Origin: an uncultured delta proteobacterium
Lineage (GTDB): Bacteria; Desulfobacterota; Desulfobaccia; Desulfobaccales; 0-14-0-80-60-11
Length of the DNA stretch: 64,000 bases
Direction of reading: 5' to 3'
Assembly (NCBI GenBank): GCA_963808395.1
Contig: CAWEFJ010000006.1
Span: 38,845-102,844, forward strand
Both the position numbers and the translations under genes were made by a program. The notes under the pieces are model-generated. The model did no database searches, was not told the origin of the DNA, and worked only from the letters and a program-made list of their open reading frames with translations. Below are positions 4,587 to 64,000 of the stretch, in pieces. Every line of letters begins with the position of its first letter. Within the stretch, counting starts at the first letter, position 1.

Positions 4587-4987
4587 GCGACCCCCAAATT
4601 AGATAAAGCGGGGGATATCAGGAGGGTAGGTTAAAAGGCAGGCAATCTTTACCTAAATAATTCTCATTTTTTTTGAATTTATTCTTGTATGATAATAATT
4701 TCTTATTTGGCGAGAAAAAGGCCGCGCCCCCCGGGGCGCCTGTGGAGGAGGGCGCCGCGGCAACCCCGGGGCGGCTGCGCGGCTCGCCGCGGCCAATAAT
4801 CGGGAAAAATTAGGCCGGCGGCATAATCCCCAGGTGTTCTTGACGGCCCGGCATGATATATTGCTCATCCAAAGGCGCCGGGGCGCCGGGGAGCTACGGG
4901 GAAACCCGGGTGCGCCCCGGAAGGAAACGGCTTTAAGACCGGCTGCCAGCCAGGCCAGCCCCAGGGTGGGGCAGCGGGAGAGTCCTC

Positions 4988-6448
4988 ATGTCGGCCAGGG
5001 GGAAGATCGACAAGATTCTGATCGCCAACCGGGGCGAGATCGCCGTGCGCATCATGCGCTCCGCCCAGGAATTGGGCCTCAAGGTGGTGGCCATCTACGA
5101 GGAGACCGACAAGGACGCCTTCCATATCATGCGGGCCGATGAGGCGGTGTGCATCGGCCCCGGCCCCCGGAAGGATTACCTGAATATCGACAAGATCATC
5201 GAGGCGGCCAAGAGAGACCGGGGCCCAGGCCATCCACCCGGGCTACGGCTTTCTGGCGGAAAATCCCGACTTCCCCGAAGCCTGCACCAATGCGGGCCTG
5301 GTGTTCATCGGGCCGCCCCCGGAGGTGATCCGCAACCTGGGGAGCAAGGTCATCGCCCGCAAAATCGCCCAGGAGACCGGCATCCCGGTGATTCCCGCCA
5401 CCGCCAGCCTGCCCCCGGGGGCCCCGGGGGAGAGGCAGGCCCTGGAGTTCGCGGCGACCCACGGCTATCCCCTGATGATCAAGGCGGTTTCGGGCGGCGG
5501 CGGCCGGGGGATTCGCCAGGTGGAGGATGAGAAGCAACTGCTGGCCGGGCTGCGAGCAATCCCGGGCCGAGGCCCTGATGTCCTTCGGGGACGACGACAT
5601 CTACCTGGAAAAGCGGGTGCACCGGCCCCGGCACGTGGAGGTCCAGATCCTGGCCGATGACTACGGCAACGTGGTGCACCTCGGCACCCGGAACTGCTCC
5701 ATCCAGCGCCGCCACCAGAAACTCATCGAGATCGCCCCCGCCGGGCTGGACCCGGCTTTGACCGCAGGAGATCTGCGACGGCCGCGGTGCGGGTCGTCCG
5801 GGCCGCCAATTATCTCAGCGCCGGCACGGTGGAATTTCTGGTGGAGCCCGACGGCACCTATTACTTCCTGGAAGTGAACACCCGCCTCCAGGTGGAGCAT
5901 ACCGTCACCGAGGTGGTGACCGGCATCGATATCGTCCGGGAGCAGCTCCTCATCGCCATGGGCGAGCCCATCAGCTTTTCCCAGGACCAGGTGGTGGAGC
6001 GCGGCTACGCCATCGAGCTGCGGATCAACGCCGAAGACCCGAAAAACGATTTTCTGCGCCAGCCCCGGCGTGGTGCAGGTCTACCAGTCCTCCGTCGGCC
6101 ACGGGGTCCGGCTGGACGGCGCCATCTACCAGGGTTACGAAATCACGCCCGTATTACGACTCCCTGATGGTGAAACTCACGGTCTACGGCTTCACCTGGC
6201 GGGAGGCGGTGGACCGCATGGCCCGGGCCCTCAAGGGGTTTCTCATCATCGGGGTGAAGACCACCATCCCCTACTTTCAGCAGATCGTCCACGAGCCGGA
6301 TTTTATCGCGCATGCAGCTGGACACCGCCTATATCGACGACCACCCCCAACTCCTGGATTACCGGGAGGAGGAGCGGGAGGTGGACAAGATGGCCCGCCT
6401 CATCGCCGAAATCAACGCCCATGGCAAGAACCCTTATGCGTTAAGTGA
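4988..6448 (+). CDS. biotin carboxylase subunit (pyruvate carboxylase subunit A / AccC-like), at least 6 frame changes
   Basis: ATP-grasp biotin carboxylase pieces are spread over ORFs starting at 4988, 5301, 5527, 5787, 6070, 6167 and 6312. Readable pieces: [86 protein letters not shown]. The 3' end is uncertain: TAA at 6442 and TGA at 6446 lie in the two other frames. Confidence 0.85.
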
Positions 6449-6450
6449 AG

Positions 6451-6508
6451 CAAGGTCAAAGTTCAAGGTTCAAAGTTCAAGGTTCAAAGTCTGGAACTCG
6501 AACTCAAC
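6451..6508. repeat. tandem heptamer array (CAAAGTT/CAAGGTT units, then GAACTCG/AACTCAA)
   Basis: caaggtcaaagttcaaggttcaaagttcaaggttcaaagtctggaactcgaactcaac, located between the two carboxylase genes. Confidence 0.9.
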
Positions 6509-12572: not shown

Positions 12573-14355
12573 TTAAACCGAACAGAGGCGGCAATCTTCG
12601 GAGAATTCCTGGGACAGGGTGAGGGCCCGGGTTTCGGTGGGCAGGCTCAGGACCTGGCCCGGCTTGGAGCCGTAGCGGTAAACCGTGATGCCCTTGAGGC
12701 CCAGTTTGTAGGCCAGCCGGTAGGCCTGGGCGATGTCCGCCGCGGTGGCGTCCGGAGCCAGATTGATGGTCTTGGAGACCGCGTTCTCCACGTGGGCCTG
12801 GAAGGCGGCCTGCATCCGCACCTGGTAGTCGACGCTCACCTCGAAGGTGGTGGGGAACAGGCGCCGCAGCTCTTCGGGCAATTCCTTAAAGGGCCGCACC
12901 CGGCCGCTGCCGAGGGTGGGGGGCAGCCAATCCTCGCCCCTCAGGCCGAACTCCTGCAACTTTTGCAGGAACAGCGGATGGACCTCTTCAAATTCCTCCC
13001 CCTCCAGGGCCCGGCGCCGGTAGGCCACCGCGAAGAGGGGTTCGATGCCGCTGGAGGCTCCGGCGATAATGCTGATGGTGCCGGTGGGAGCGACGGTGGT
13101 TACCGTCGCGTGGCGCCGCGGGTTTTCTGCCCTCCTGAAAAAAGCGGCTGCGGGGGAAATTGGGGAAGGGGCCGCGTGCCGCGGCCAGGGTTTCGGAGCA
13201 GGCCACCGCCCGGGCCTGGATGCGGGCCATGATCCGCCCCCCCAGGTCCAGGGCTTCCGGGGAATCGTAGGCCAACCCCATCTGGATGAACAGGTCCGCC
13301 AATCCCATGACCCCCAGGCCGATCTTGCGGTTGGCCCGGGTGATTTCGCTGATCCGGGGCAGGGGGTAGTGGCTCTGGTCGATGACATCGTCCAGGAAGG
13401 TAACCCCCAGGGCCACCAGGCGGTCCAACTCCTCCCAGTCCAGGCCGCCGCGCTTAACCAGGCGGGCCAGGTTGATGGAACCCAGGTTGCAGGATTCATA
13501 GGGCAGCAAGGGCTGTTCGCCGCAGGGGTTGGTGGCCTCCAGCCGGCCCAACTCCGGGGTGGGGTTGGCGCGCTCGATGGCGTCCAGAAAGATGAGACCC
13601 GGATCGCCGGTCTCCAGGGCGCCGCGGCAGATGAGGTCAAAGACCTCCCGGGCCCGGAGCCGCCCGGTTTCCTGTTGGGTCCGGGGATTAATCAGGGGGT
13701 AGGTTTGGTCTTGAGCCTCCTGTTCCATGAAGCGGTCCGTGACCGCCACGGAGAGGTTGAAGTTGCTGAGCATCCCCGGTTCGCCCTTGGCCTTGATGAA
13801 CTCCAGGATGTCAGGGTGATCGACATTGAGGATGCCCATATTGGCGCCCCGGCGCCGGCCGCCCTGCTTCACCACCTCGGTGGTGGTGTCGAAGATCCGC
13901 ATGAAGCCGACGGGTCCGGAGGCCACCTGGCCGGTGCTGCGGACCTGGTCCCCCCGGGGCCGCAGGTGGGTGAAGGAGAAGCCGGTGCCGCCCCCGGTCT
14001 GGTGAATCAGGGCCATGTCCCGCACCGCCTCCAGGATGGCGCGCATGTCGTCCGCCACCGGGATGACGAAGCAGGCGGCCAACTGCCCCTGCGGCAGGCC
14101 GGCGTTCATCAAGGTCGGGGTATTGGGCAGGAATTTTAGGGAGCGCATGGCCTCGTGAAAGGCCGCCTCCTGGCGGGCCACCGCCTCGGGGCCTCCGTAG
14201 CGCCCTTCCGCGGCGGCCACCCCCCGCGCTACCCGGAGAAACATCTCCGCCGGGGTTTCCACCACTTTTCCGGCCGGGTCCCGGCGCAGATAGCGTTCCC
14301 GCAGGACCCGCAGGGCCAGGGGACGAAACTGCGGCGGGGGAGGGGGGGCGGCCAT
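12573..14355 (-). CDS. nrdJ: class II (adenosylcobalamin-dependent) ribonucleotide reductase (one frame change in the A/T run at ~13139-13145)
   Basis: ORFs 12988..14391 and 12573..13640 join across a TTTTTT run. Readable pieces: FLPNTPTLMNAG, ACFV, GGGTGFSF, EATNPCGEQPLLPYESCNLGSINL, TVAPTGTISIIAGASSGIEPLF, KTINL. The likely true start is ATG 14355 (MAAPPPP); the listed TTG start lies inside a tandem repeat. Confidence 0.9.
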
Positions 14356-14370
14356 GGATGGCTCCTCGGG

Positions 14371-14443
14371 AGTTTCGAGTTCAAAGTTCAAAGTTCAAAG
14401 TTCAAAGTTCAAAGTCAAAGTCAAAGTCAAAGTCAAAGTTCGG
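14371..14443. repeat. tandem array: five AGTTCAA heptamers then four AGTCAA hexamers
   Basis: agtttcg(agttcaa)x5(agtcaa)x4agttcgg, lying immediately upstream of the nrdJ start on the opposite strand. Confidence 0.95.
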
Positions 14444-14602: not shown

Positions 14603-17349
14603 ATGGCGTCCGCGATCAGCAATCCGCAGGTCCTGAGTGCCGAGGAAGTTCTAAAATTGCTGGGGAGCAGGCCCGGCGGCCTGAGCCAGGCGGAGGCTGA
14701 GGAGCGCCTGCGCCTTAACGGCCCCAATCTCCTGGCGCCGGTCAAACAGAGTTCTCCTCCTGGCTGATTCTGCTGCGGCAATTCTTCAATCTTCTCATCA
14801 TTATCCTCCTGGCTGCCAGCGTCATCTCCTTTCTGCTGGGAGAGAACCTGGACGCCTGGCTCATCCTGGCGATTATTCTGGCATGCGTGGTTTTGGGGTT
14901 CATCCAGGAATACCGGGCCGAACAGGCGGCCGCGGCCTTGCGGCGGCTGGCGGCGCCGGAGGCCACGGTGGTGCGGGAGGGGGAACGAGGTCGCGTTGCC
15001 GGCCCGGGAAGTGGTGCCTGGCGACGTGTTGGCGCTGCGCCAGGGAGATATGGTGGCCGCCGACGCGCCGCCTGTTGGCGCAGTTTAACCTGCAGGCGGA
15101 TGAATCCCTGCTTACCGGAGAGTCCGTGGGGGTGGACAAAGACCTGGCTCCCCTGGCAGCGGCGGATGCCGCCCTGGACGAGCAGCGCTGCATGGTGTTC
15201 GGAGGCACCGTGATCACTTACGGGCGGGGCCGGGCGGTGGTCACCGCCACCGGCATGGAGACCCAGTTCGGGAGCATCGCCCGTCTGCTGGCGGAAGTCC
15301 CCGAGGAGGCCACGCCCCTGGAGCAGCGCATGACCACGGTGGGGCGCCTCCTGAGCGTCATCTGCCTGGCGGCCGCGGTGGGCGCCGCCCTCCTGGGGGT
15401 GCTCCGGGGCCACGCCTGGCTGGAGATGCTCATCTGGGGCATTACCCTGGCGGTGGCCGCGGTGCCGGAGTCATTGCCGGCGGTGGTCACCGGGGCCCTG
15501 GCCATCGGCACCACCCGCATGGCCCGGCGCCACGCCATCGTCAAGCGCCTGCCGGCAGTGGAAACCATGGGCTGCACCACGGTGATTTGCACCGACAAGA
15601 CCGGCACCCTCACCCGAAACGAGATGACCGCCAGGCGCCTCTTTCTGGACGGCCGGGAAATCGAGGTGACCGGGTCGGGATATGAACCCCTGGGGAAATT
15701 TCGGGAGGCGGGCCGGGATTTGCGGCCGGGCCAGGAGCCGCTTCTGGCCGTGGCGGCCCGCATCTCCCTGCTGTGCAACGACGCGGGCCTGGAAGTCCGG
15801 GACGGTCTCTGGACGGTGCGCGGCGATCCCACCGAAGGAGCGTTGCTGGCCCTGGCGCGGAAGGCGGTAGCCAATAGCCGGCAGGTGCTGGCCGCCTTTC
15901 CCCGGGTGGCGGAGATTCCCTTTTCCGCGGAAACCAAGAGGATGAGCACCTTCCACCAGGGGCCGGAGGGCTTTCTGCAGTGCCTCAAGGGGTCTCCCGA
16001 GGGCCTGCTGCATAATTCTTCCAGAGTTTTGACGGCGCAGGGGGAAAGGCCCGTCACCGAGGAGGACCGGCGGCTGATCCATCAAGAGGCGGGCCGCATG
16101 GCCCAGGACGCCCTGCGCGTCTTGGGGCTGGCTTACCGCCCTCTGAAAAGTCCGCCCCCAGGCGCACTCGAGTCCGAGGCCAAGGTTGAGGATCTGGTTT
16201 GGGTAGGTCTGGTGGGCCTGATGGACCCTCCCCGGCCCGAGGCCCGGAAGGCGGTAAGCCGGTGCCGTCGGGCCGGCATCCGGGTCATCATGGTCACCGG
16301 CGACCATCCGGACACCGCCGGGGCCATCGCCCGGGAGGTGGGGCTGATTCCGGAGGGGCAGGATTCAGGCGGTCCTTTCCGGGAAAGAGATTGACCAGCT
16401 AAGCGATGCGGAGCTTAAGGAGGCCCTGAAAAACATCCGGGTCTTCGCCCGGGTAAACTCGGGCCATAAACTGCGGCTGGTGGCGCTCCTCAAGGGCCAG
16501 GGGGAGGTGGTGGCCATGACCGGGGACGGGGTCAATGACGCCCCGGCCTTGAAACGGGCCGACATCGGGGTGGCCATGGGGCAGAGCGGCACCGCGGTGG
16601 CCAGGGAGGCCGCCGCCATGATCCTGGCGGATGACAACTTCGCCAGCCTGGTGGCCGCGGTGGAGGAAGGCCGCGCCATCTTCGACAACATCAAGAAGTA
16701 CCTGGTCTTTCTGCTGAGCAGCAACATCGCCGAGATCCTGGTGCTCAGCGGGGCCTTCTTGTTCGGCCTGCCCTTGCCTCTCGTCGCCTTGCAGATCCTT
16801 TGGGTCAATCTCACCACCGACGGACTGCCGGCCCTGGCCCTGGGGGTGGACCCCAAGGCCCCGGACATCATGAGACGCCCGCCGCGGCCGCCCCGGGAAG
16901 GAGTCTTCACCCCCACCGTGAATTTCCTGCTGGTGGTGATCGCCCTCTATCTCACCGCCCTCCTCATACCTCTGTTTGCCTATTATGTTTACTGGAATCC
17001 TAACGGCCTGGGCTCGCCGGAGCAGGTCGTGGTCCGGGCCCGGACCATGGTGTTCACCACCCTGGTGCTGGTGGAACTGGTGAATGCCTTCAACTGCCGC
17101 TCCGATTACCACTCCCTGTTCACCACGGGCCTCTTTCCCAACCGCTTTCTCAACCTCTCCGTGCTGCTGTCCTTGCTGATGATGGTGGCGGTGATCGAAT
17201 GGCCGCCCCTGGGCCGGCTGTTCCATACCACGCCCCTGGGGTGGCATGACTGGCTGCTGGCGTGCGCTCCTGAGCCTCAGTATCCTGCCGGTGGTGGAAG
17301 CGGCCAAGTGGTGGCTGCGGCTTGTTGGGAAGGCAAAAGGAAAAAGTAA
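14603..17349 (+). CDS. cation-transporting P-type ATPase (type II, Ca2+/Mg2+-like), at least 5 frame changes
   Basis: N-terminal cation-ATPase domain (LSAEEVLKLLGSRPGGLSQAEAEERLRLNGPNLLA). Also TGES (LLTGESVGV), the phosphorylation site ICTDKTGTLT, MVTGDHPDTA and AMTGDGVNDAPALKRADIGVAMG. The gene is split across ORFs 14567, 14887, 14883 and 16480. Confidence 0.9.
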
Positions 17350-17456
17350 AAAGGCAAAGAAAAGAATAAAAAGGACCTTTTTCCTTTTACCTTTTGCCTT
17401 TACTCAGGGGTGGCACAGGGTCCCCGCCTGGCGCACCGGCTGGAAGCCGGTGCCAC

Positions 17457-27472: not shown

Positions 27473-28786
27473 CTAAGAGGCCTCCAGGAATTGCACCGCT
27501 CCCAGTTCCTGCAAGGCCTCGGCGTAGCGGGCCGCCGGCCCCATCACCAGGATGACCAGGGACTCGGGGTGCAGATGCTCCTGCGCCGATTGGGCCGCGG
27601 TCTTCAGGGAAACGCCGCGAATTTGCTCACAATAACCCTGCAGGTAATCCCGGCCCAGGTCGAAGAGATCGATGGACAGCAGTTGCCGGCTGATGCCCCC
27701 GGGGTTCTCCAGGCCCAGGGGGAAATGCCCCACGTAATAACTCTGGGCCTCCTCCAGTTCCTGGGAAGTGAGCCCCTGTTGCCTTAAGTCCCGGACCACC
27801 CGGCCGATTTCCTGCACCACCGCGGCGGTGTTGGCCGCCGGGGTGAAGGTGGAGATGATAAAGGGGCCCGGGGCCCGGCGAAAGGAGAAGCTGCTGCGGA
27901 TGCCGTAGGTGAAACCCAGATCCGAGCGGATGCGGGTCATGAGGCGGGAGGAGAAGCCGCCCTCCCCCAGGATGTAGTTCACCAGCTTCAGGGGGAAGTA
28001 ATCCGGGTGGGAGCGGGGCAGGCCCAGGTGCCCAACCCGAATCTCACTTTGGGTCAAATCGGGGCGGTCCAGGAGATAGATGCCGGGGGAGCAGACCTTA
28101 TCAGGCGGCGCAGTGAAGGCCGGGCTGGCGGGGCCGCCGCCGCGAAAGTTCCCCCAGAGGCGCCCGGCTTCCCGAACCAGGGTGGCGAACTCCACCATGC
28201 CCACCGCCACCAGGGTGGCGGTCCCGGGAGTGAACTCCCGCTGATAAAAGCCTTGCAGATCAGCGAGGGAGAGGGCGTCCAGGGTCCGCAGGTCGCCCGG
28301 CGCCGGGTGGCCATAGGGCGAATCGCCGAAGAACAGGCGCAGGTAACGCAGACTGGCCATCTCCCGGGGGTCCTGCAACTGTTGCACCAGCTCGGCGCGG
28401 CGGCGCTCCCGGATCAGCAGGAACTCATCCTCCGGAAAGGCCGGGGTCTGGACGATCTCCGCCAGGGTGGCCAGATGTTCCTCAAAATCCTCGGCCAGGC
28501 CCTCGAGAGAGATCAGGGTGGCGTCAAAGCCGGAGCGGCCCGAGAGGGACGCTCCCCGGGCTTCAATATCCTGGGCCAGTTGCAACTGGCTGCGGCGGGA
28601 AGATCCCAGGGTGAGGAGCTCCGCGGCCCAGTCGGCCACCCCGGCCTTGCCCGGCGGGTCGGTCTCGGAGCCCCGCTTGGCCATGAAGGTGAGACTCAGC
28701 CAGGGCGCCCGGGCGTACTCCACCCCCAGCAGGTTCATGCCATTGGGCAGGGTAGCCTGGTGGATTTCGGGGATATAGTTTGGCAT
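27473..28786 (-). CDS. M16 (pitrilysin) family peptidase-like subunit lacking an obvious HxxEH motif
   Basis: 437-aa two-lobe M16 architecture (LPNGMNLLGVEYARAPWLSLTFMAKRGSETDP...). It lies downstream of the HxxEH-containing M16 gene. Confidence 0.8.
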   Translation of the reverse strand: MPNYIPEIHQATLPNGMNLLGVEYARAPWLSLTFMAKRGSETDPPGKAGVADWAAELLTLGSSRRSQLQLAQDIEARGASLSGRSGFDATLISLEGLAEDFEEHLATLAEIVQTPAFPEDEFLLIRERRRAELVQQLQDPREMASLRYLRLFFGDSPYGHPAPGDLRTLDALSLADLQGFYQREFTPGTATLVAVGMVEFATLVREAGRLWGNFRGGGPASPAFTAPPDKVCSPGIYLLDRPDLTQSEIRVGHLGLPRSHPDYFPLKLVNYILGEGGFSSRLMTRIRSDLGFTYGIRSSFSFRRAPGPFIISTFTPAANTAAVVQEIGRVVRDLRQQGLTSQELEEAQSYYVGHFPLGLENPGGISRQLLSIDLFDLGRDYLQGYCEQIRGVSLKTAAQSAQEHLHPESLVILVMGPAARYAEALQELGAVQFLEAS

Positions 28787-28800
28787 ATTAAGGTCCTTTT

Positions 28801-28833
28801 AGTGAGCAGTGAGCAGTAAGCAGTGAGCAGTGA
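28801..28833. repeat. tandem heptamer array (AGTGAGC/GTGAGCA) about 4.7 units
   Basis: agtgagcagtgagcagtaagcagtgagcagtga. It is the reverse complement of the array at 29221-29248. Confidence 0.95.
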
Positions 28834-28998
28834 ACCCCTGGTGGATTTCGGGGATATAATTTGCCATCTTAACTCCTGTTTTCGGTTTTCAGGCGGTTTC
28901 GTTGCAAAAAAATTAATAATGGCAGCGGCATCCTTTATAGGCGCCTTAGCAACCTCAACAATCAAAGCGATTTAAATTCAATAAGGTTCATTTAAAGA

Positions 28999-29191
28999 GG
29001 TTCTAAGGAATCGGTGGGCAGTGCCCACCCCAGTTTCTAGTCTTCATCTCATGCTGCGCGAGGCGAAGCATCTCCATTCAGAGATTCTTCGGTCGCCTGC
29101 GGCTCCCTCAGAATGAGAAGAAATGACCTGGTATCATCTTGGTGCTTTAATAAACAGTCTTATAGGGCGGCCTGTGGCCGCCGACCCGGCG
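28999..29191. repeat. ~190-bp structured dispersed element, copy 2
   Basis: See copy 1 (22807-22994). This copy lies between the two inverted heptamer arrays. Confidence 0.85.
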
Positions 29192-29220
29192 CGGCCAGAC
29201 CCCCCTGGTTTGGCTTTTTC

Positions 29221-29248
29221 TGCTCACTGCTCACTGCTCACTGCTCAC
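29221..29248. repeat. tandem heptamer array (TGCTCAC)x4; contains the stop codon of the upstream M16 gene
   Basis: tgctcactgctcactgctcactgctcac. On the minus strand the gene ends ...CCG TTG GCG TGA GCA GTG AGC. Confidence 0.95.
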
Positions 29249-31786: not shown

Positions 31787-31828
31787 AACTCAAAACTCAA
31801 AACTCAAAACTCGAAACTCGAAACTTAA
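31787..31828. repeat. tandem heptamer array (AACTCAA x3, AACTCGA x2, AACTTAA)
   Basis: Starts about 10 nt downstream of the lepB stop. On the lepB strand the units read GTTTCGA/GTTTTGA. Confidence 0.95.
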
Positions 31829-31836
31829 ATCGCCTC

Positions 31837-32638
31837 TCAGTGGATGATTTTTCCAATCCGGTCCCAGCGCACCTGGAATTGGCTGGTGTCCCAGGAGAGG
31901 TGGTGGATCAGCCCATTCAGTCCCCCCAGTAAGCTTAAGAGGAATTTGGGCTCCCCGGGAGGCCCCTTCCAGGAGAAATAGATGATGGTGGCCTTCCCCT
32001 TGATGGCGTCCAGGTTCACGAAACCCCAAAAACGGCTGTCGAAGCTGCGGTCCCGGTTATCGCCCATGCAGAAATAGCAGTGCGGCGGGACCACCACCGG
32101 GCCGTAATTATCCCGGGGCGCCTGATCGGCCGGGATAAATTCTTCATGTCCGTTGCTGTCTTTGAAGATTGCCTGGGGTATTTTGAATTCCTGGTCGTTA
32201 ATGAAAACTTTTTTATTGATAACCTGCACTTTATCCCCGGGCAGGCCGATGACCCGCTTGATATAGTCTTTGGGTTCGATATAGGCCGGGTTATCGCGGT
32301 ACATACTGGTGGGCGGTTGATTGATATAGTCTTTGCTGGGATCCAGGGTGAAGATGAAGACCACCACGTCGCCCCGCTGGGGGGCGCCCAGGGGGACCAT
32401 TACCCGGTTGGTGAAGGGATTGCGGACGCCGTAGCTTAATCGGTTTACCAGGAGGTAATCCCCGATCAGCAGGGTGTTCTCCATGGACCCGGAGGGAATG
32501 GAAAAGGCCTCGAAAAGAAAGGCCCGGATGATCAGGGCCAGGATAATGGCGATGCCCAAGGCCTCGCCATACTTCGCGGAAGATGGATTTCTCCGCGGGA
32601 CGCGGGCGCGGGGCGGATTGCGGAAGTTTGGCGAACAA
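31837..32638 (-). CDS. lepB: signal peptidase I (one frame change near 32575)
   Basis: IPSGSMENTLLIGDYLLVNR...GDVVVF...YIKRVIGLPGD...GDNRDRSFDSRFWGFV. The N-terminal TM segment is in ORF 32291..32638 (TTG start). Confidence 0.88.
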
Positions 32639-35272: not shown

Positions 35273-37264
35273 ATGGAACCCGGCAGCATCGTGGAATTTT
35301 TCGAGGAAAAGCGCATCCTTTGCGGCGTGGTCCTGGAGCTCAAAGGGGAGCGCCTGCATGTCCTGAGCCAGAACGGCCGGGAATTTACCCTGCCTCCCAA
35401 GCGTCTCTTGCACGCCGGGCCCTCTCTGCCCCTGAACCGATTAATCCGCCAGGATTTGCTGAAGCGTCTGGAGGAGACCGCCGGGAGGCGGGAAGTCCTG
35501 AAAGCCGCCATTAATCTGGAGGAGCTTTGGGAGCTGCTGGCCCCGGAGGACCATGCCGCCACCGTGACGGAGTTGGCCGAGCTGTGGTTCGGCCGCGCCT
35601 CCCCGGATGAAGTGGCGGCCACCGGGAGAAGGCTGCGGGAAGATCGGCTCCTTTTCAAGCTCCGGGACGAGCAGGTCGAGGCCAACCCGCCGGAGCTGGT
35701 GGCCCAACTGCGGCAGCAGCAGGAACGGGAAGCGGCCCGGCGGCGGCAACTGGCGGAGGTGGGCGCCTGGCTCCAGGCGGTCTGGGAGGGGCGGGAGCTT
35801 GCCCGGCACTATCCCTGGCGGGAAGAGGTGGTGGCGCTGCTGCGCCGGATGGCGGTTAGCGGCGCGGAGGCCCCGGACTATGACCAGGGCAAGGCTTATC
35901 TGGACCAGGCCGGCCTGAGCGCCGCTGCGGCCCCTTTCCGGCTGCTGGTGCGCCTGGGGGTCTTTCATGAAGATGAAGACCTGGAATTGCACCGCCTGGA
36001 AACGCCGGTGGAGTTTTCCCCCGCGGCCCTGGCTCAGAGCCGGCAACTGGCCAGTTCGCCTCCCGCTCCGGACCCGTACGCGGCCCGGCGCCGGGACCTG
36101 AGCCACCTGGCGCTGATCACCATCGACGGGGAGCACACCCGGGATTTCGATGACGCCCTCAGCCTGGAAGAGCTCCCGGAGGGCTGGCGTCTCGGCATCC
36201 ACATTTCCGATGTCTCCACCGTGGTCCAACCCGGCGCCCCCCTGGATCAGGAAGCCGGGGAACGGGGCAGTTCCATCTATCTGCCGGAACGGCGCCTGCC
36301 CATGCTGCCGGAGGAGATTTCCGAAGACCTCTTGAGCCTCCTGGCCCACCGCCCCCGCCGGGCCCTGAGCTTCATGGTGACCCTGAGCCCGGAGGCGGAG
36401 GTCCTGGATTGGGCCATCGAACCCAGTCTCATCCAGGTGAGCCGCAGGCTGACTTACCACGAGGTGGAGGCCCTGATTCAACAGGAGCGAACCCTGGCGG
36501 TTCTCTCCCGGTTGACCCGGAGGCTCAAGGAGGAGCGCCTGGCCCAGGGCGGCTACGAGCTGCTACTGCCTGAGGTTTGGGTGATGTTCGGCCCCCAGGG
36601 GGAGTTGCAGGTGTCGGTGGAGGACCAGGAGACTTCCAGCCGCCAATTGGTGGCGGAGGCCATGGTGCTGGCCAATTCCCTGGCGGCCCGCTTTCTGGCC
36701 GACCGGGGCATCCCCGCCATCTATCGCAGCCAGCCGGAGCCCCGGGAACCTATTCAGCCAAAGGAGCACAAGGGTCTGTTGGAATTATGGCGGGACCGGC
36801 GCAGTCTCAGCCGGGTGGTAATGGGCGTTTCGCCCCTGCCCCACTGGGGTCTGGGGTTGAGCTGCTATACCCTGGCCACTTCCCCCATCCGCCGCTACCT
36901 GGACCTCTTGATCCACCGCCAGCTTCTGGCGGCCCTGAGCGATACCCCGCCCCCCTATGGCCGCCAGGACCTGGAGCAAATCCTGCCGCGGCTGGAGCCG
37001 GCCATGCGCCGGGGTGGCAGGCTTAAGGCCCGGCGGCTGCGCTATTGGCTGCTGAAGTACCTGGCGGCCCGGCTGGGACAGAAGAAGGAGGCCCTGGTGC
37101 TGGAGTCCTTGCCCCACCGGTACCGCCTCATCTTCCCCGACCTGTTGCTGGAGTTGTTTATGACGGCGCCCCCCGGTCTGCGGCTCTCCCCCGGGGACAC
37201 CGTCCTGGTGCGGCTGGACCGGGTTTCACCCCGGGAGGACCAGATCAAGGTGTCGCTGGCCTAA
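35273..37264 (+). CDS. RNase II/R family 3'-5' exoribonuclease
   Basis: RNB domain (ITIDGEHTRDFDDALSLE...SIYLPERRLPMLPE...SPIRRYLDLLIHRQL) and a C-terminal S1-like tail. Start taken at MEPGSIVEFF. Confidence 0.88.
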   Translation: MEPGSIVEFFEEKRILCGVVLELKGERLHVLSQNGREFTLPPKRLLHAGPSLPLNRLIRQDLLKRLEETAGRREVLKAAINLEELWELLAPEDHAATVTELAELWFGRASPDEVAATGRRLREDRLLFKLRDEQVEANPPELVAQLRQQQEREAARRRQLAEVGAWLQAVWEGRELARHYPWREEVVALLRRMAVSGAEAPDYDQGKAYLDQAGLSAAAAPFRLLVRLGVFHEDEDLELHRLETPVEFSPAALAQSRQLASSPPAPDPYAARRRDLSHLALITIDGEHTRDFDDALSLEELPEGWRLGIHISDVSTVVQPGAPLDQEAGERGSSIYLPERRLPMLPEEISEDLLSLLAHRPRRALSFMVTLSPEAEVLDWAIEPSLIQVSRRLTYHEVEALIQQERTLAVLSRLTRRLKEERLAQGGYELLLPEVWVMFGPQGELQVSVEDQETSSRQLVAEAMVLANSLAARFLADRGIPAIYRSQPEPREPIQPKEHKGLLELWRDRRSLSRVVMGVSPLPHWGLGLSCYTLATSPIRRYLDLLIHRQLLAALSDTPPPYGRQDLEQILPRLEPAMRRGGRLKARRLRYWLLKYLAARLGQKKEALVLESLPHRYRLIFPDLLLELFMTAPPGLRLSPGDTVLVRLDRVSPREDQIKVSLA

Positions 37265-37302
37265 AGAGCCGGCAGGAACGAGCTGAGCCCCTGAAATGCC
37301 GT
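37256..37302. repeat. left copy of the 47/48-nt direct repeat (includes the last two codons and stop of the RNase II/R gene)
   Basis: CTGGCCTAAAGAGCCGGCAGGAACGAGCTGAGCCCCTGAAATGCCGT. Confidence 0.95.
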
Positions 37303-37560
37303 TTAAATTAGAAATTAGGATCGCTGACCACGCGGGTCTTTGGGTAATATCAGAAGTGAGATAAAAAATAGATATGAGGTAGAGATCAGCAGCAATATCG
37401 CGGAAGGCTGGGAGCAAATAGATAGCAGTTATCGGGGATTACTCCGTCGAGAGGCATGAGGATTCCGTGGCGGTGGAGCGAAAGGAAGGGAGAGGGCGAA
37501 GGATTAAGCTCACTTGCCGCTATGGAGCGCAGCGAAGTGGCGATCAGGTGGAGCGCCTTG

Positions 37561-38872
37561 TTAGGGAATACATTTTCTGAGCGTACCCTTTACCCAATCA
37601 GGCATTGACCAAAAGAACAGGTAGAGCAGACCAAAAAAAACGCCCCAGTTAGATAGTTCATCAAGCACAAAACTTACATAACCGCCATACGGTAGATGGT
37701 GTGTAATTTTGATTATCAGTAGATACCATTGCGATAGAAATATGAATGACACAATGACCATAGAACCCAATGAAATATCGCGAATGTAACATTTTCCCCA
37801 TACGACCAGCTGAGGGATGGTGAGTATGAGGAACATGAGTCTGTAATCCCAGTTATTGCCCAGCAGGAATGTTCCCAAATAAATTGCAGTTCCTGCTCTA
37901 AATGCATCGAGATACTCTGCTTCGCTTTGACTTTCTGTTAGAAAGTCATCGCGGAGCAAGGAAGTAAACGCGAACCATAACGCCAACAAAACTATTAGGT
38001 AGGATAAAAACCTTGCATACCATCCTAACGTATGATTGAAACTCATTGCTTTCATCCAAAATACATCTAATCCATAAGACAGGCTTATGCTTCTTGGTGT
38101 TGCATCTCTAATCAATGAAATGTCCGAATAAGTTAGAAATATATAACTAGCGATGAAGGCAACAGAAAATTAAAACATATCTCAAAAACAATGGTCGGAT
38201 TGCTCTAAGTAAAACTGCACACCCAAAAATAGGATATAGTTTCAAGACGAACCCAAGCAAGACAGCTAAGGCAGATAATATGTGCCACCTTTTAATTGCT
38301 ACAACTGATATAGTGACAAGAAAAAACATAAATAAATCAATATTACCCCGCTCGATACCCAATAAAGTGGCTGGAGACAAAACAGCTGCCATAACAAGCA
38401 CGATAATTATATTGCTGGCATGTGGTAATAATAAGCAGATACTAACCATAAATAACAAAATAAAACTAATTCCTATGTATGTTGTATGACTTTGATTAAC
38501 ACCAATTGAATATAAGCTTTGCCAAACTCTGGGGTAATTTAGTCTTCTTTGCCAAGGGTCTCCAGGATTCTCAATCATTGGATCAAACCCTTGTGCGTAT
38601 GATTCTGCGCCGCCGGTAATAACGCGAAGATCAGCAAAATGCGGAGACATTGTGGGGATATTCCATAGCCTCCATGTCCTATCGTAACCGTATAAACTAA
38701 ATAGCAATCCAAAAACCAGCGTTACTAAAACGCAAGCCAATATTACTTTCCTTCTTGATATCCATATTGTTGCCCAAACAATAATTAGATTGATCCCGAT
38801 AAGATGTGGAGATTCGGTTTTCTGTCCGTATAAGACGCCATTGTATCGCGTCTTCCAATGACCATAAATCAT
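37561..38872 (-). CDS. AT-rich polytopic membrane protein, GT-C-like (possible glycosyltransferase or polymerase-type); one frame change near 38125-38150
   Basis: ORFs 38147..38872 and 37561..38115 join. The frame carrying AFIASYIFLTYSDISLIRDATPRS is open across the listed stop, and a TTTT run lies at the junction. The protein has many hydrophobic segments and a loop FADLRVITGGAESYAQGFDPMIENPGDPWQRRLNYPRVWQ. The function call is weak. Confidence 0.55.
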
Positions 38873-39293
38873 GATATATCATTGGCTTGCATCGAGGCTG
38901 CCCCCTTATCACGGTTCTTCGGACCTCTTTGCCCGGAAAAATCCCCCAAAGTTTCTGTTCTTGAAGCTGAATCCTCTGTCGACGCCATGATAGCACAAGT
39001 TTCCTTGGAAAAATATCTTTGCTGTGGAGCTTACTGACCCCAGGCCAGCACTGATCGGTGGTGGTGAGCCGGGGAAAGGGCTGCGGTGAGATACGCATAC
39101 CAGCCCCTTTGAGAAGCAGGATTAAAAAATAGCAGATCACTTGCCAGAGCGACAATTATCCCCAAGCCCATAAAAATTGCGGATATTCCCCGGATATACC
39201 TTCTAACTTTTCGCCGGCTCCGTGGTCTTTACCATTGAAAGCCTGGATTCGATCCTCTTTCCGGAAACCTAGCAAAACACCAGGGAGGGAACC

Positions 39294-40259
39294 ATGTTAT
39301 CTCCGCAGCAAGCCTTAATTGTGGCGGCGTCCTTGTTGCTCTTCTGGGGCGCAGGGCAAGCCGGGGCGGGCCAGGGGGGCCTCTCCGCGGCTGACTCTGA
39401 CTTTCAAAGGGTTAAAACCAGAGTCGCCGAACTGCAAGAGGATATCTCCACCATTAATCTCTTAAACGGACTTAACCTCTCCCAGGACCAGGAGAAGCAA
39501 ATCCTGCAATTGGCCCAGGAGGCCCGCCAGGTCCGGGAACGGGCCACCATCAATTCGCCCTCCCTCCTGGAGGCCATGCGGCAGGCTGAAACCTCCTACG
39601 CCAACCTTAAAGAAGAGATCGAGAAAGGCGCGCCGGCCAGGGGTCAGATTCCCACCCAGGCAGCCCAGGTCAATCATCACCTGAAGGAGTTGCAAGACCA
39701 GGGCAACCGGCAGATGTCCACGGAGTTCAGCGCCCTGGAGGGGAAGCTCAGGGGGGTGCTGAGCCCCGAACAGCTCCAGGTGGTGGAAGATTTCAGCCCC
39801 TGCCTGATCCCTCCGGTGGATTTGCGCTCGCCGGTGCGGGCCGGCCAGGCCGCCTCCAACCAGGGAAGCGTAAACCTGCTGCGGCGGTTGCGGGCGATAC
39901 CCGAGGATAAATGGCAGGCGCGGCGGCGAATGATCGCCCAGAAGATTGTGAATAATATCAATGAAAACCATTACCGGATGACCGAAGCCGAAAAGACCGC
40001 GGCGGAAGCCCGCCTCCTGGCGGTGTTGGACCAGGCGCGGCAGATGTCGGATATGGATTTTGAGCTGGCCAAAGAAAAACTGGCCGCGCAGATTGCGCCC
40101 CCAGACAAAATTAAGAACCTGCGGAATGAAATCGAAGCGCGCCTGCCTCATGCGAGAAGGCCGCAAATGTCCCGGTTGGGACGCTCTTTGCTCAGCGACA
40201 ATATTATTCCCATCCTGGAGCAGCGCCTCGCCAACAACAACCTGGCAGAGGCGCGCTAA
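39294..40259 (+). CDS. secreted helical protein with LTxxQ-like motifs (CpxP/Spy-like periplasmic protein)
   Basis: Signal peptide MLSPQQALIVAASLLLFWGAGQAGA. Motifs LNLSQDQEKQI and LSPEQLQVV. RBS is GGGAGGG. Confidence 0.6.
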   Translation: MLSPQQALIVAASLLLFWGAGQAGAGQGGLSAADSDFQRVKTRVAELQEDISTINLLNGLNLSQDQEKQILQLAQEARQVRERATINSPSLLEAMRQAETSYANLKEEIEKGAPARGQIPTQAAQVNHHLKELQDQGNRQMSTEFSALEGKLRGVLSPEQLQVVEDFSPCLIPPVDLRSPVRAGQAASNQGSVNLLRRLRAIPEDKWQARRRMIAQKIVNNINENHYRMTEAEKTAAEARLLAVLDQARQMSDMDFELAKEKLAAQIAPPDKIKNLRNEIEARLPHARRPQMSRLGRSLLSDNIIPILEQRLANNNLAEAR

Positions 40260-63294: not shown

Positions 63295-63440
63295 TTGCCT
63301 CCTCCCATCCTGCTCTTAATCGAGCCTGAAATCCCACTAGTGAAAAATTTAGCACCTTTTTCCGCCTGGCCGCTAAATCCGCGGGGCGTGGGGTAAAGCC
63401 GGCGGCTGCATGAACCGCACCGCCACTGTCCCTGGCCCCT

Positions 63441-63490
63441 CACTGCTCACTGCTTACTGCTCACTGCTCACTGCACTGCTTACTGCTCAC
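63441..63490. repeat. tandem heptamer array (CACTGCT/TACTGCT, about 7 units); contains the purB stop codon
   Basis: cactgctcactgcttactgctcactgctcactgcactgcttactgctcac. The minus strand reads ...GGG GAG TGA GCA GTA AGC. Confidence 0.95.
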
Positions 63491-64000
63491 TCCCCAAACA
63501 CCCGGGCGAAGATGGCATCGACGTGGCGCAGGGAGCGCCCCAGGTCGAAGATGGCCGCCAGTTCCGCCGGGGTCAGATGCCGGGAGATCTCCGCATCCTT
63601 TTGCACCAGCGAGGGAAACTCGCCTCCCTGCTCCCAGACTTGCATGGCCGGGCGCTGCACCAAGCGGTAAGCCGCATCCCGGCTCAGGCCTTTGCCAATC
63701 AGCGCCAGCAACAGGCCCTGGGAGAAGATCAGGCCGTGGGTGAGGTTGAGGTTCTTGGTCATATTTTTCGGGTAAACCGTGAGATTCTTCAGCAAGCGGG
63801 TGAGGCGGGCCAGCATGAAGTCCAGGAGCACGGTGCTGTCCGGGGCAATGAGCCGCTCCACCGAGGAGTGGCTGATGTCCCGCTCGTGCCACAGGGGCAC
63901 GTCTTCCAGGGCCGCCAGGGCATTGGCCCGGAGCAGCCGGGCCAGGCCGCAGAGGTTCTCGGAGAGAACCGGGTTGCGCTTGTGGGGCATGGCGGAAGAG
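63487..64000 (-). CDS. purB: adenylosuccinate lyase, C-terminal part (gene continues beyond the window end)
   Basis: [46 protein letters not shown]... matches the fumarate-lyase family signature region and the PurB C-terminus. Confidence 0.9.

Follow-up and report, generated by a model that had tools for sequence, protein, structure and literature searches.

The window analysed here, a stretch of 64 000 nucleotides (C6:38845-102844) from a Desulfobaccales-type lineage of the Desulfobacterota, carries short tandem arrays of 7-nt units at the ends of its genes, and similar arrays are found throughout the genome. In the explanation that we prefer, and to which we give an even chance of being right, stem-loop insertions, located at gene junctions and resembling the intervening sequences (IVSs) of 23S rRNA, are the source of these heptamer arrays, which are either the arms, resized by slippage and pairing in the transcript, or single arms left over. 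The protein family PF05635, genes for which lie in some of the loops, is known from 23S rRNA IVSs and from diversity-generating retroelements (Avd). A preliminary description, made from the sequence of the window alone, had named six arrays, including the focal array at 14371-14443, and Tandem Repeats Finder (TRF) reports a period of 7 at all six places.

Tandem repeats were called with TRF in the window and in the whole assembly (3.195 Mb in 33 contigs, 60.7 % G+C, 68.65 % complete). Among whole-genome arrays of at least 3.5 copies there are 246 with period 7, and 117, 45 and 29 with periods 6, 8 and 9, respectively. The corresponding numbers for arrays scoring at least 50 are 123 with period 7, and 9, 11 and 7 with periods 6, 8 and 9. 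A control with the reversed pattern gave close to zero. It is confirmed that the heptamer arrays are real and far beyond chance. The possibility, raised with the preliminary description, that they are artefacts of assembly fails, as orthologous positions are occupied by arrays in 14 independently assembled species of the same genus, one of them a single-contig assembly.

Merging of overlaps reduced the 217 heptanucleotide TRF rows to approximately 215 arrays. By position, 156 rows fall between genes, 39 have an overlap with a gene end, and a called open reading frame (ORF) encloses the other 22. However, genes were called with a crude home-made caller that assigns only 73 % of the genome as coding, and the intergenic share is therefore over-counted. 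Units were named by canonical rotation and strand. The most frequent are AAAACCG (29 arrays), ACTGCTC (27) and AAAGTTC (21), the last of these being the family of the focal array, followed by ACTACTG, AAACTCG, AAAACAG and ACTGGCT with 15 arrays apiece, and more than 10 unrelated unit sequences are present within this one genome. The classification of the window arrays as a family like the STRR elements (short repetitive sequences repeated in tandem), located in intergenic DNA at gene ends, was upheld by the genome-wide TRF calls and their positions; the inverted pairing, fixed polarity and link to PF05635 cassettes described below were absent from it. As in STRRs and heptanucleotide long simple sequence repeats (LSSRs), 7-nt units are arranged head to tail in at least 3-4 copies, many dispersed and mostly non-coding copies are present, and array length varies among close relatives. 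The canonical STRR units (CCCCAGT, TTGGTCA and CAACAGT) are not those used here, namely AAAACCG, ACTGCTC, AAAGTTC, ACTACTG, AAACTCG and others. Searching Rfam gave no family match within the 64-kb window.

The arrays hug gene edges, with 40 % located within 5 nt of an edge, compared to 9 % when arrays were placed at random in the same spacers. There are 0.25 arrays per kb of co-directional spacer, 0.32 per kb of convergent spacer and 0.095 per kb of divergent spacer. Orientation follows a rule that is symmetric at the DNA level, namely that, read 5′ to 3′ from the gene edge into the spacer, the same arm type is seen at start and stop edges alike. Among arrays within 40 nt of an edge, 97 obey this rule and 6 violate it. 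The ratio is 61 : 5 for solo arrays and 24 : 1 in convergent spacers, and all six of the named window arrays comply. On the stop side, the sense strand reads GAGCAGT (17 : 0), AGCCAGT (8 : 0), CGAGTTT (5 : 0) or CTGTTTT (5 : 0), with start-side arrays reading as the complements, and CAGTAGT-type arrays are in the stop-side orientation in a ratio of 6 : 2. Hence, the search for a bias in position and orientation that the preliminary description had proposed gave a positive answer on both counts.

Many of the arrays are paired. An inverted partner is found within 600 nt for 61 arrays (approximately 30 %), compared to 2-5 in direct or reversed controls. Which member of the pair comes first does not vary inside a family (9 : 0, 9 : 0, 6 : 0, 5 : 0, 3 : 0 and 3 : 0), and two families are written in the opposite sense (0 : 7 and 0 : 3). 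Same-family inverted pairs make up 24 of the 49 pairs of neighbours, compared to 5.1±2.0 (maximum 14) over 2000 permutations. A rule based on composition was rejected as the source of this polarity, as only about 9 of 12 families have a 5′ arm that is the richer of the two strands in G+T (counted by hand on the listed units).

One pair in the window occupies the spacer between two M16 peptidase genes on the minus strand. The stop-side 5′ arm (29220-29248; TRF CTGCTCA, 4.1 copies) reads (TGAGCAG)x4 in the sense direction, and its first TGA is the stop codon (29245-29247) of the upstream gene. The start-side 3′ arm (28801-28833; TRF AGTGAGC, 4.7 copies) reads (CTCACTG/CTTACTG)x4.7 and pairs with 29220-29248; 14 nt, including an AAGGA Shine-Dalgarno (SD) motif, separate its end from the ATG of the downstream gene. 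The 386-nt loop (28834-29219) contains a palindrome, GGTGGGCACTGCCCACC (29013-29029), that is like a repetitive extragenic palindromic sequence (REP), together with pieces of dispersed repeats and a short (GAAAACC)-type run. In the predicted RNA fold, the arms form a 29-bp stem, as expected for an IVS, that closes the whole 386-nt spacer; the minimum free energy and centroid structures agree (z = -6.75). The loop also includes, at 28837-28867, a 31-nt second copy of the start of the downstream gene (28756-28786). Target-site duplication was rejected as its origin, as relatives show that it marks the join of two allelic spacer types, a G013/G007-like spacer and a G006-like array and SD. The spacer is a recombinant of these two types, which implies that related species exchange spacers as a whole.

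A comparison of 14 congeneric species, with protein identities of 77-100 %, shows that the arms of the M16 spacer keep the same two edges. They consist of 1 to 7 units, and the loop ranges from approximately 60 to approximately 480 nt and contains unrelated inserts, including REPs and, in G005, an AT-rich ORF fragment. The unit family varies by species and both arms change together, to GGTTTTC/GAAAACC in G007 and to AGGGRYC/GRYCCCT in G011 and G001. One arm has been lost in G006, G013 and G005, which provides a direct view of how solo arrays originate. In G014, a copy of the REP is inserted within the 5′ arm. A matrix of arm duplexes across species was uninformative as a test of covariation because one family is common to most of the species, and only G007 and G001/G011 are telling.

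Genes encoding PF05635 (23S_rRNA_IVP) proteins are found in 29 of 31 genomes of the family, in 1-8 copies each, and, among 14 control genomes, only in Bacteroides. Full flanks were available for 24 loci, representing the best match per genome, and 17 of these are bracketed on both sides by inverted heptamer arrays, which belong to at least nine unit families. The bracketing arrays are 5-216 nt, mostly 30-60 nt, from the Pfam match, and the gene can be in either orientation. The arm duplexes at the 17 bracketed loci have calculated energies of -19 to -51 kcal/mol, with one very long pair at -150 kcal/mol. The nearest solved relative of the PF05635 product is XCC0516 (PDB 2GSC, E = 1.9e-22), a four-helix bundle of the S23p family.

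A lineage-specific hidden Markov model identified five PF05635 copies or remnants in this genome. A near-intact copy between the livG stop and the livF start (C10:245250-245549) has the arms (GGTTCCC)3 and (GGGAACT)3. A frameshifted copy (C6:189234-189588) is bracketed, a degraded one (C31:103962-104226) has degenerate arms, a 35-aa remnant (C10:240393-240497) lies within an otherwise gene-less pair, and fragments (C10:94291-94423) adjoin an array. These five loci form a decay series from cassette to gene-less pair. All of the PF05635 copies are located between protein-coding genes, e.g. livG and livF, and none lies within a helix of 23S rRNA.

These cassettes have a hot spot in the liv operon. 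At the livG-livF junction, the cassette is present in this genome (G000), G007 and G012. The junction is nearly empty in G014 (approximately 52 nt, no array), a 5′ arm that does not match, REPs and a 3′ arm of the cassette type are found in G006 and G008, and G011 and G002 have a 900-nt AT-rich insert. The loop in G004 (L187) contains a gene resembling those for REP-associated tyrosine transposases (RAYTs), flanked by REP-like palindromes. In most other species of the genus there is a second PF05635 copy just downstream of livF (L177-L187). In G000, G007 and G012 there is one upstream of livF instead, and G006 has extra partial tandem copies.

The association extends beyond the genus. Genomes across the phylum were tallied by hand, and those with at least 10 matches to ACTG- or GTCA-core patterns were designated array-rich. 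PF05635 was found in 56 of 64 array-rich genomes and in 156 of 337 others (odds ratio 8.1, Fisher p = 4e-10, not corrected for phylogeny). Within the family, PF05635 copy number is correlated with array counts (Spearman rho 0.80 and 0.77, likewise uncorrected).

The precedent in 23S rRNA is the IVS of Coxiella, which has a 28-bp stem formed by terminal inverted repeats and an S23p ORF in the loop, is excised by RNase III, and undergoes decay of the ORF (PMC4990558). The elements described here share with the IVSs of Coxiella burnetii and Leptospira a stem of approximately 28 bp and, at five loci of this genome and 17 of 24 family loci, a PF05635 ORF of approximately 125 aa in the loop, with decay of that ORF and a host RNase III (PMC4990558); all of the other 14 genomes in the genus have an RNase III gene, which this 69 %-complete assembly alone lacks. 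They differ in lying between protein-coding genes, often in operons, and not in 23S rRNA helix 9, 25 or 45, in having arms that are tandem heptamer arrays of many families, and in that most pairs lack an ORF. By analogy, the elements described here may also be excised.

In the proposed mechanism, an element would have two complementary arms of approximately 28-35 nt (four to five heptamers) and fixed polarity, as in 23S rRNA IVSs, with a loop that may hold the gene for a PF05635 four-helix bundle or another small piece of mobile DNA, or may be empty. Replication slippage would keep changing the length of the arms and renewing their units. The arms would pair in the transcript, closing off the spacer from the stop codon to the SD or start, and RNase III would probably cut the stem. 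If one arm were lost, the other would persist as a solo array with its orientation unchanged. Pairing in the cell and RNase III cutting are suggested by the predicted fold and the IVS precedent, and most arrays would have originated from cassettes. Stem-loop insertion would explain why polarity is fixed, because the element has defined ends, and why the orientation rule is strand-symmetric and includes the solo arrays, because solos derive from partner loss, as relatives show. The flush fit at stop codons and SD or start sites would arise because insertion is at the junction, and insertions inside operons would be tolerated because RNase III probably cuts the stem. The variable loops and the PF05635 decay series are also accounted for.

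Several observations weigh against this explanation. Only approximately 9 of the 215 arrays here flank a recognizable PF05635 copy. No PF05635 remnant was found within 1.5 kb of the ffh, M16 or ribonucleotide reductase loci in any of the relatives examined, and most arrays are therefore not traceable to a cassette. A PF05635 ORF was likewise not found at the focal array or in any array pair of the window. The PF05635 gene may simply prefer pre-existing hairpin loops, as other loop cargo was also seen (REPs, a RAYT-like transposase gene and AT-rich ORFs). The arms are non-complementary in some species at livG-livF, and PF05635 is absent from some array-rich genomes (G159 and G278). Neither a mobility mechanism nor a target duplication was found, nor was an empty versus filled pair with exact borders. 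A wider proposal, which we make only tentatively, is that heptamer-armed stem-loops are the mRNA counterpart of the 23S rRNA IVSs, i.e. widespread junction-colonizing cassettes, typically with a PF05635 gene, that are tolerated since the arms pair and are cut or looped out. STRR heptamers would then largely be their arms or relics, with co-option of some relics as leaders that work without an SD, and the heptamer arms would be what the PF05635 protein acts on.

The focal array (14378-14441, minus strand; TRF AGTTCAA, 9.7 copies) is a solo start-side array of the 3′-arm type. The preliminary description was correct that five AGTTCAA heptamers are followed by AGTCAA hexamers. However, the span that it gave, 14371-14443, which reads GAGTTTCG, then AGTTCAA x5, then the AGTCAA hexamers, includes one extra degenerate flanking unit. 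Its sense strand, the minus strand, consists of (ACTTTG)x~5 followed by (AACTTTG)x~5. A gap of 22 nt, in which there is a GAGGAG SD motif, separates the end of the array from the ATG (14353-14355) of a ribonucleotide reductase large-subunit gene (12988-14355, minus strand; Pfam Ribonuc_red_lgN and lgC). The same site in the nearest species, G006 (98 % amino acid identity), has closely aligned flanks, (AACTTTG)x3 and no hexamers. The two sites thus differ in having approximately 10 units (about five heptamers and five hexamers) versus three, and a difference in copy number between close species, a point that the preliminary description had proposed to check, is seen both here and in the M16 arms. 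As judged from this comparison, the focal array has expanded recently, from approximately 3 to approximately 10 units including the hexamer variant, after the split from G006. This growth is a typical expansion by slippage, with a variant that first arose by deletion and was later amplified.

A promoter scan found no site reaching the threshold over or near the focal array. The promoter-like sequence TTGCCT-17-TAATAT, approximately 95 nt upstream, is conserved in three species and scores 8/12, below the threshold. If it is real, the array would lie in the 5′ untranslated region. The best reading of the focal array is as a solo arm on the start side of the reductase gene, within its leader, and its influence on expression is probably small.

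The main rival to stem-loop insertion, which we regard as a real but clearly lesser possibility, is that the arrays are selected cis-elements. Start-side arrays would be unstructured, SD-independent leaders for the ribosome, and stop-side arrays would be complementary partners for coupling or stabilization. Here, at least 17 recognizable housekeeping genes, including etfB, metG, ffh, rtcB, dnaG, guaA, gmhB, rpsG, cobQ, xseA and nrdR, are preceded by an array that ends 0-9 nt before the ATG and leaves no room for an SD. The 3′ end of the 16S rRNA is canonical (CCUCC), yet only approximately 44 % of confident genes have an SD core, compared to a background of 16 %. A TRF survey of ffh in 28 genomes from 14 genera found a 7- or 8-nt array ending no more than 11 nt before the ATG in 19 genomes, with units from at least six families (AAACTCG, CGAAAAC, TTGCGTC(T), GCTGAWA, CTGCTCA and AAGCTCA), and position is thus kept while the unit sequence turns over. 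An 8-nt ffh unit (TTGCGTCT/TTGGCGTC) is found in genera g9, g6 and g18 (L120, L123, L128 and L129), and the period is therefore not strictly seven. The genes that flank pairs include partners of the heterodimer type, as for the two M16 subunits.

Precedents for cis-elements have been reported in the STRR hairpins between hupS and hupL in cyanobacteria (PMC2670836) and the TAACTGA leaders of Beggiatoaceae (PMC4679880). The TAACTGA repeats, which are also found in some cyanobacteria and Bacteroidetes (MacGregor 2015, PMC4679880), are similar in that ‘forward’ arrays end a few nucleotides before starts and occupy the place of a missing SD, essential genes included, as is seen here in the housekeeping genes and in ffh. 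The CTACTGA family found here differs from TAACTGA by one base. However, the TAACTGA unit itself is not used here, and more than 10 others are. As many arrays follow stop codons, in the complementary orientation, and inverted pairs are frequent, whereas the Beggiatoa genome has a single one.

Selection for leaders is opposed by ffh itself, as no SD core was found in any of the 28 genomes, including the nine with no array. The array is therefore not needed for SD-less initiation, and arrays may merely fill unconstrained space and abut the ATG for that reason. The proposal that the leader orientation is the less structured strand was rejected, since only 6 of 11 families show less self-structure in the start-side orientation than in the complement. 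At the stop edges of convergent genes, where a leader role is inapplicable, the orientation rule holds just as strictly, and the livG-livF junction of G014 is entirely without arrays.

A second and rather unlikely alternative is that the arrays are ordinary slippage microsatellites with no link to an element. Their orientation bias would be due to purifying selection, and PF05635 genes and other mobile DNA would land in chance hairpins. Two features, the copy-number differences between sister species and the amplification of a hexamer variant in the focal array, are classic products of slippage. MutS is present, and 7-nt loops exceed the normal range of mismatch repair. Loss of mismatch repair was rejected as a cause of the arrays, as MutS domain I was found in 30 of the 31 family genomes. 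Distribution also favours slippage, being sporadic across the phylum with lineage-specific cores. Matches to (AAAACCG)x4 with up to two mismatches were obtained from every one of the 15 genomes of the genus and from most genera of the family, and the signal from the sister family is weak. Of 401 genomes sampled across the phylum, 97 contain a generic period-7 pattern with an ACTG core. This pattern is rich in most genera of the family and again in a few scattered families, and is near absent from genera g4, g5 and g8 and from the sister family. GTCA/TGAC-core arrays replace the ACTG-core ones in other lineages. A trait that is sporadic and lineage-specific in sequence fits reports on heptanucleotide LSSRs, which in many prokaryotes form the most abundant class of long repeats and have been attributed to slippage of the polymerase (Mrazek 2007, as cited in PMC4679880). 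By the same cited account, and given the paired 7-9-nt arrays of Geobacter metallireducens (PMC2700814), the suggestion that cyanobacterial heptamers have no known equivalent elsewhere was too strong. However, slippage leaves unexplained the same-family inverted pairing at five times the permuted rate, the absolute polarity within families, the joint switch of family by both arms, the edge hugging and the two-sided bracketing, at similar distances, of 17 of 24 PF05635 genes.

It is improbable that the arrays are DNA-level sites for a nucleoid-associated or global regulatory protein, or polar barriers bordering intergenic DNA, although the orientation rule is symmetric at the DNA level for start and stop edges alike. 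Opposite-strand pairs with variable spacing have been reported in G. metallireducens (Aklujkar et al. 2009, PMC2700814). There, in a related bacterial group, three to five units of 7-9 nt (e.g. MTYCTGA x5) are found in intergenic opposite-strand pairs at variable distances, much as here. The authors took them for DNA sites of the IHF/HU type and reported neither a rule of orientation nor an analysis of turnover nor a link to PF05635. PF05635 proteins are pentameric four-helix bundles related to Avd, the accessory protein of diversity-generating retroelements, so a binding partner is conceivable. However, more than 10 unrelated units, with turnover at fixed positions, argue against a sequence-specific binder, as does the three-fold depletion in divergent spacers, which contain only promoters, against DNA-level sites in general.

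The preliminary description had also stated that every unit type contains TGA in one orientation and that arrays thereby close all three reading frames. The first statement holds for the six window arrays and not for the largest family, AAAACCG/CGGTTTT, which has a stop codon on neither strand. The AAAACAG and AAACTCG families are likewise free of stop codons in both orientations. A role as frame-closing devices or as phase-variable switches can be given very little credence: the GAGCAGT-, AGCCAGT- and CAGTAGT-type arrays do have a TGA or TAG in every frame when oriented as they are after a stop codon (17 : 0, 8 : 0 and 6 : 2), and the stop codon of the M16 gene is its array's first TGA, but a general role is refuted by the composition of the commonest, stop-free families, the TTGAACT strand of the AGTTCAA family faces start codons and does not follow stops, and the usual switching mechanisms are inapplicable to arrays that are found after stop codons or in the leaders of housekeeping genes, outside reading frames and away from the interval that separates the -35 and -10 boxes.

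A RAYT/REP system was rejected as the maker of the arrays, as Y1 transposase-like matches are weak and are also found in array-poor genera. Such weak RAYT-like matches are present in 27 of the 31 family genomes, and the only genera without them, g5 and g7, are both array-poor. REPs, or bacterial interspersed mosaic elements, with their RAYTs resemble the arrays in being abundant extragenic hairpin-forming repeats at gene ends. However, a REP is a single imperfect palindrome of approximately 20-40 nt with a conserved GTAG, whereas heptamer arrays are not self-complementary and complement only a distant partner, and RAYT-like genes track array abundance poorly. A separate, true REP family with approximately 100 copies (e.g. 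C3:79103 and C10:210708) is present here and often adjoins arrays or lies inside loops. Its consensus is (T)GTAG-GGTGGGCA(C/G)TGCCCACC-(G/A)ATTCCTTA, with a variant GGTGCGCA(C/G)TGCGCACC.

The STRRs of heterocystous cyanobacteria also resemble the arrays. They too are tandem 7-nt units, with several families per genome, hundreds of copies, intergenic locations and variable lengths, and hairpins are possible between co-transcribed genes, e.g. hupS-hupL (PMC2670836). Many units here have the ACTG/CAGT core of STRR1 (CCCCAGT) and STRR3 (CAACAGT). The differences are the lineage, a Desulfobaccales-type one, and the unit sequences. In the STRR literature searched, we did not find a description of a strand-symmetric edge rule, fixed arm polarity or PF05635 genes in loops, and no paper linking PF05635 to heptamer repeats was found. 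Heptamer arrays, hairpin-forming STRRs between cistrons, SD-less repeat leaders and ORF-bearing IVSs are already known. The orientation rule, the conservation of position across the family with turnover of units, and the quantified PF05635 association in Desulfobacterota were not found in the literature searched.

The remaining arrays of the window are all on the stop side. The plus-strand array at 6451-6490, (CAAGGTT/CAAAGTT)x5.4 by TRF, begins 2 nt past the TGA (6446-6448) that ends plus-strand ORFs. On the minus strand, the array at 31787-31829 (TRF AACTCAA, 6.1 copies), with the sense sequence (TTGAGTT/TCGAGTT)x6, is 7 nt past the stop of a signal peptidase (S26) gene (31837-32559), and that at 63439-63491 (TRF CTCACTG, 7.9 copies), with the sense sequence (CAGTGAG/CAGTAAG)x7.9, overlaps the stop of a gene (63487-...) whose start is past the end of the window. 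A weak inverted 7-nt pair at 17330-17401, consisting of (AAAGGCA-type)x~6, ACC and (TGCCTTT-type)x~4, lies between convergent genes and resembles a terminator hairpin, and its membership of the heptamer-array class is uncertain. Confident gene calls from the crude caller are sparse at 37256-39294. Frame breaks split housekeeping genes here that are entire in relatives, including the reductase gene (12573-14355), with an open frame of 468 aa compared to 596-619 aa in relatives with the entire gene, and carbamoyl-phosphate synthase (pieces at 4834-6448). Outside the window, mutS is also broken, with MutS domain I in two pieces (C10:179177-179510). Such splits probably reflect errors of sequencing or assembly in a genome that is 69 % complete and resembles a metagenome assembly.

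Heptanucleotide tandem repeats are among the most abundant unexplained bacterial repeats, and those of the STRR type have been unexplained since 1990. The arrays described here offer three testable handles, namely the orientation rule, the retention of position against the turnover of units, and the association with PF05635, which is both physical and phylogenetic. The abundance of genes that have a repeat leader and lack an SD is also relevant to the initiation of translation in these lineages. If the arms do pair and are processed in transcripts, operons in this lineage would carry removable inserts between cistrons, and this would have a bearing on gene annotation, on operon prediction and on how selfish DNA survives inside essential transcription units.

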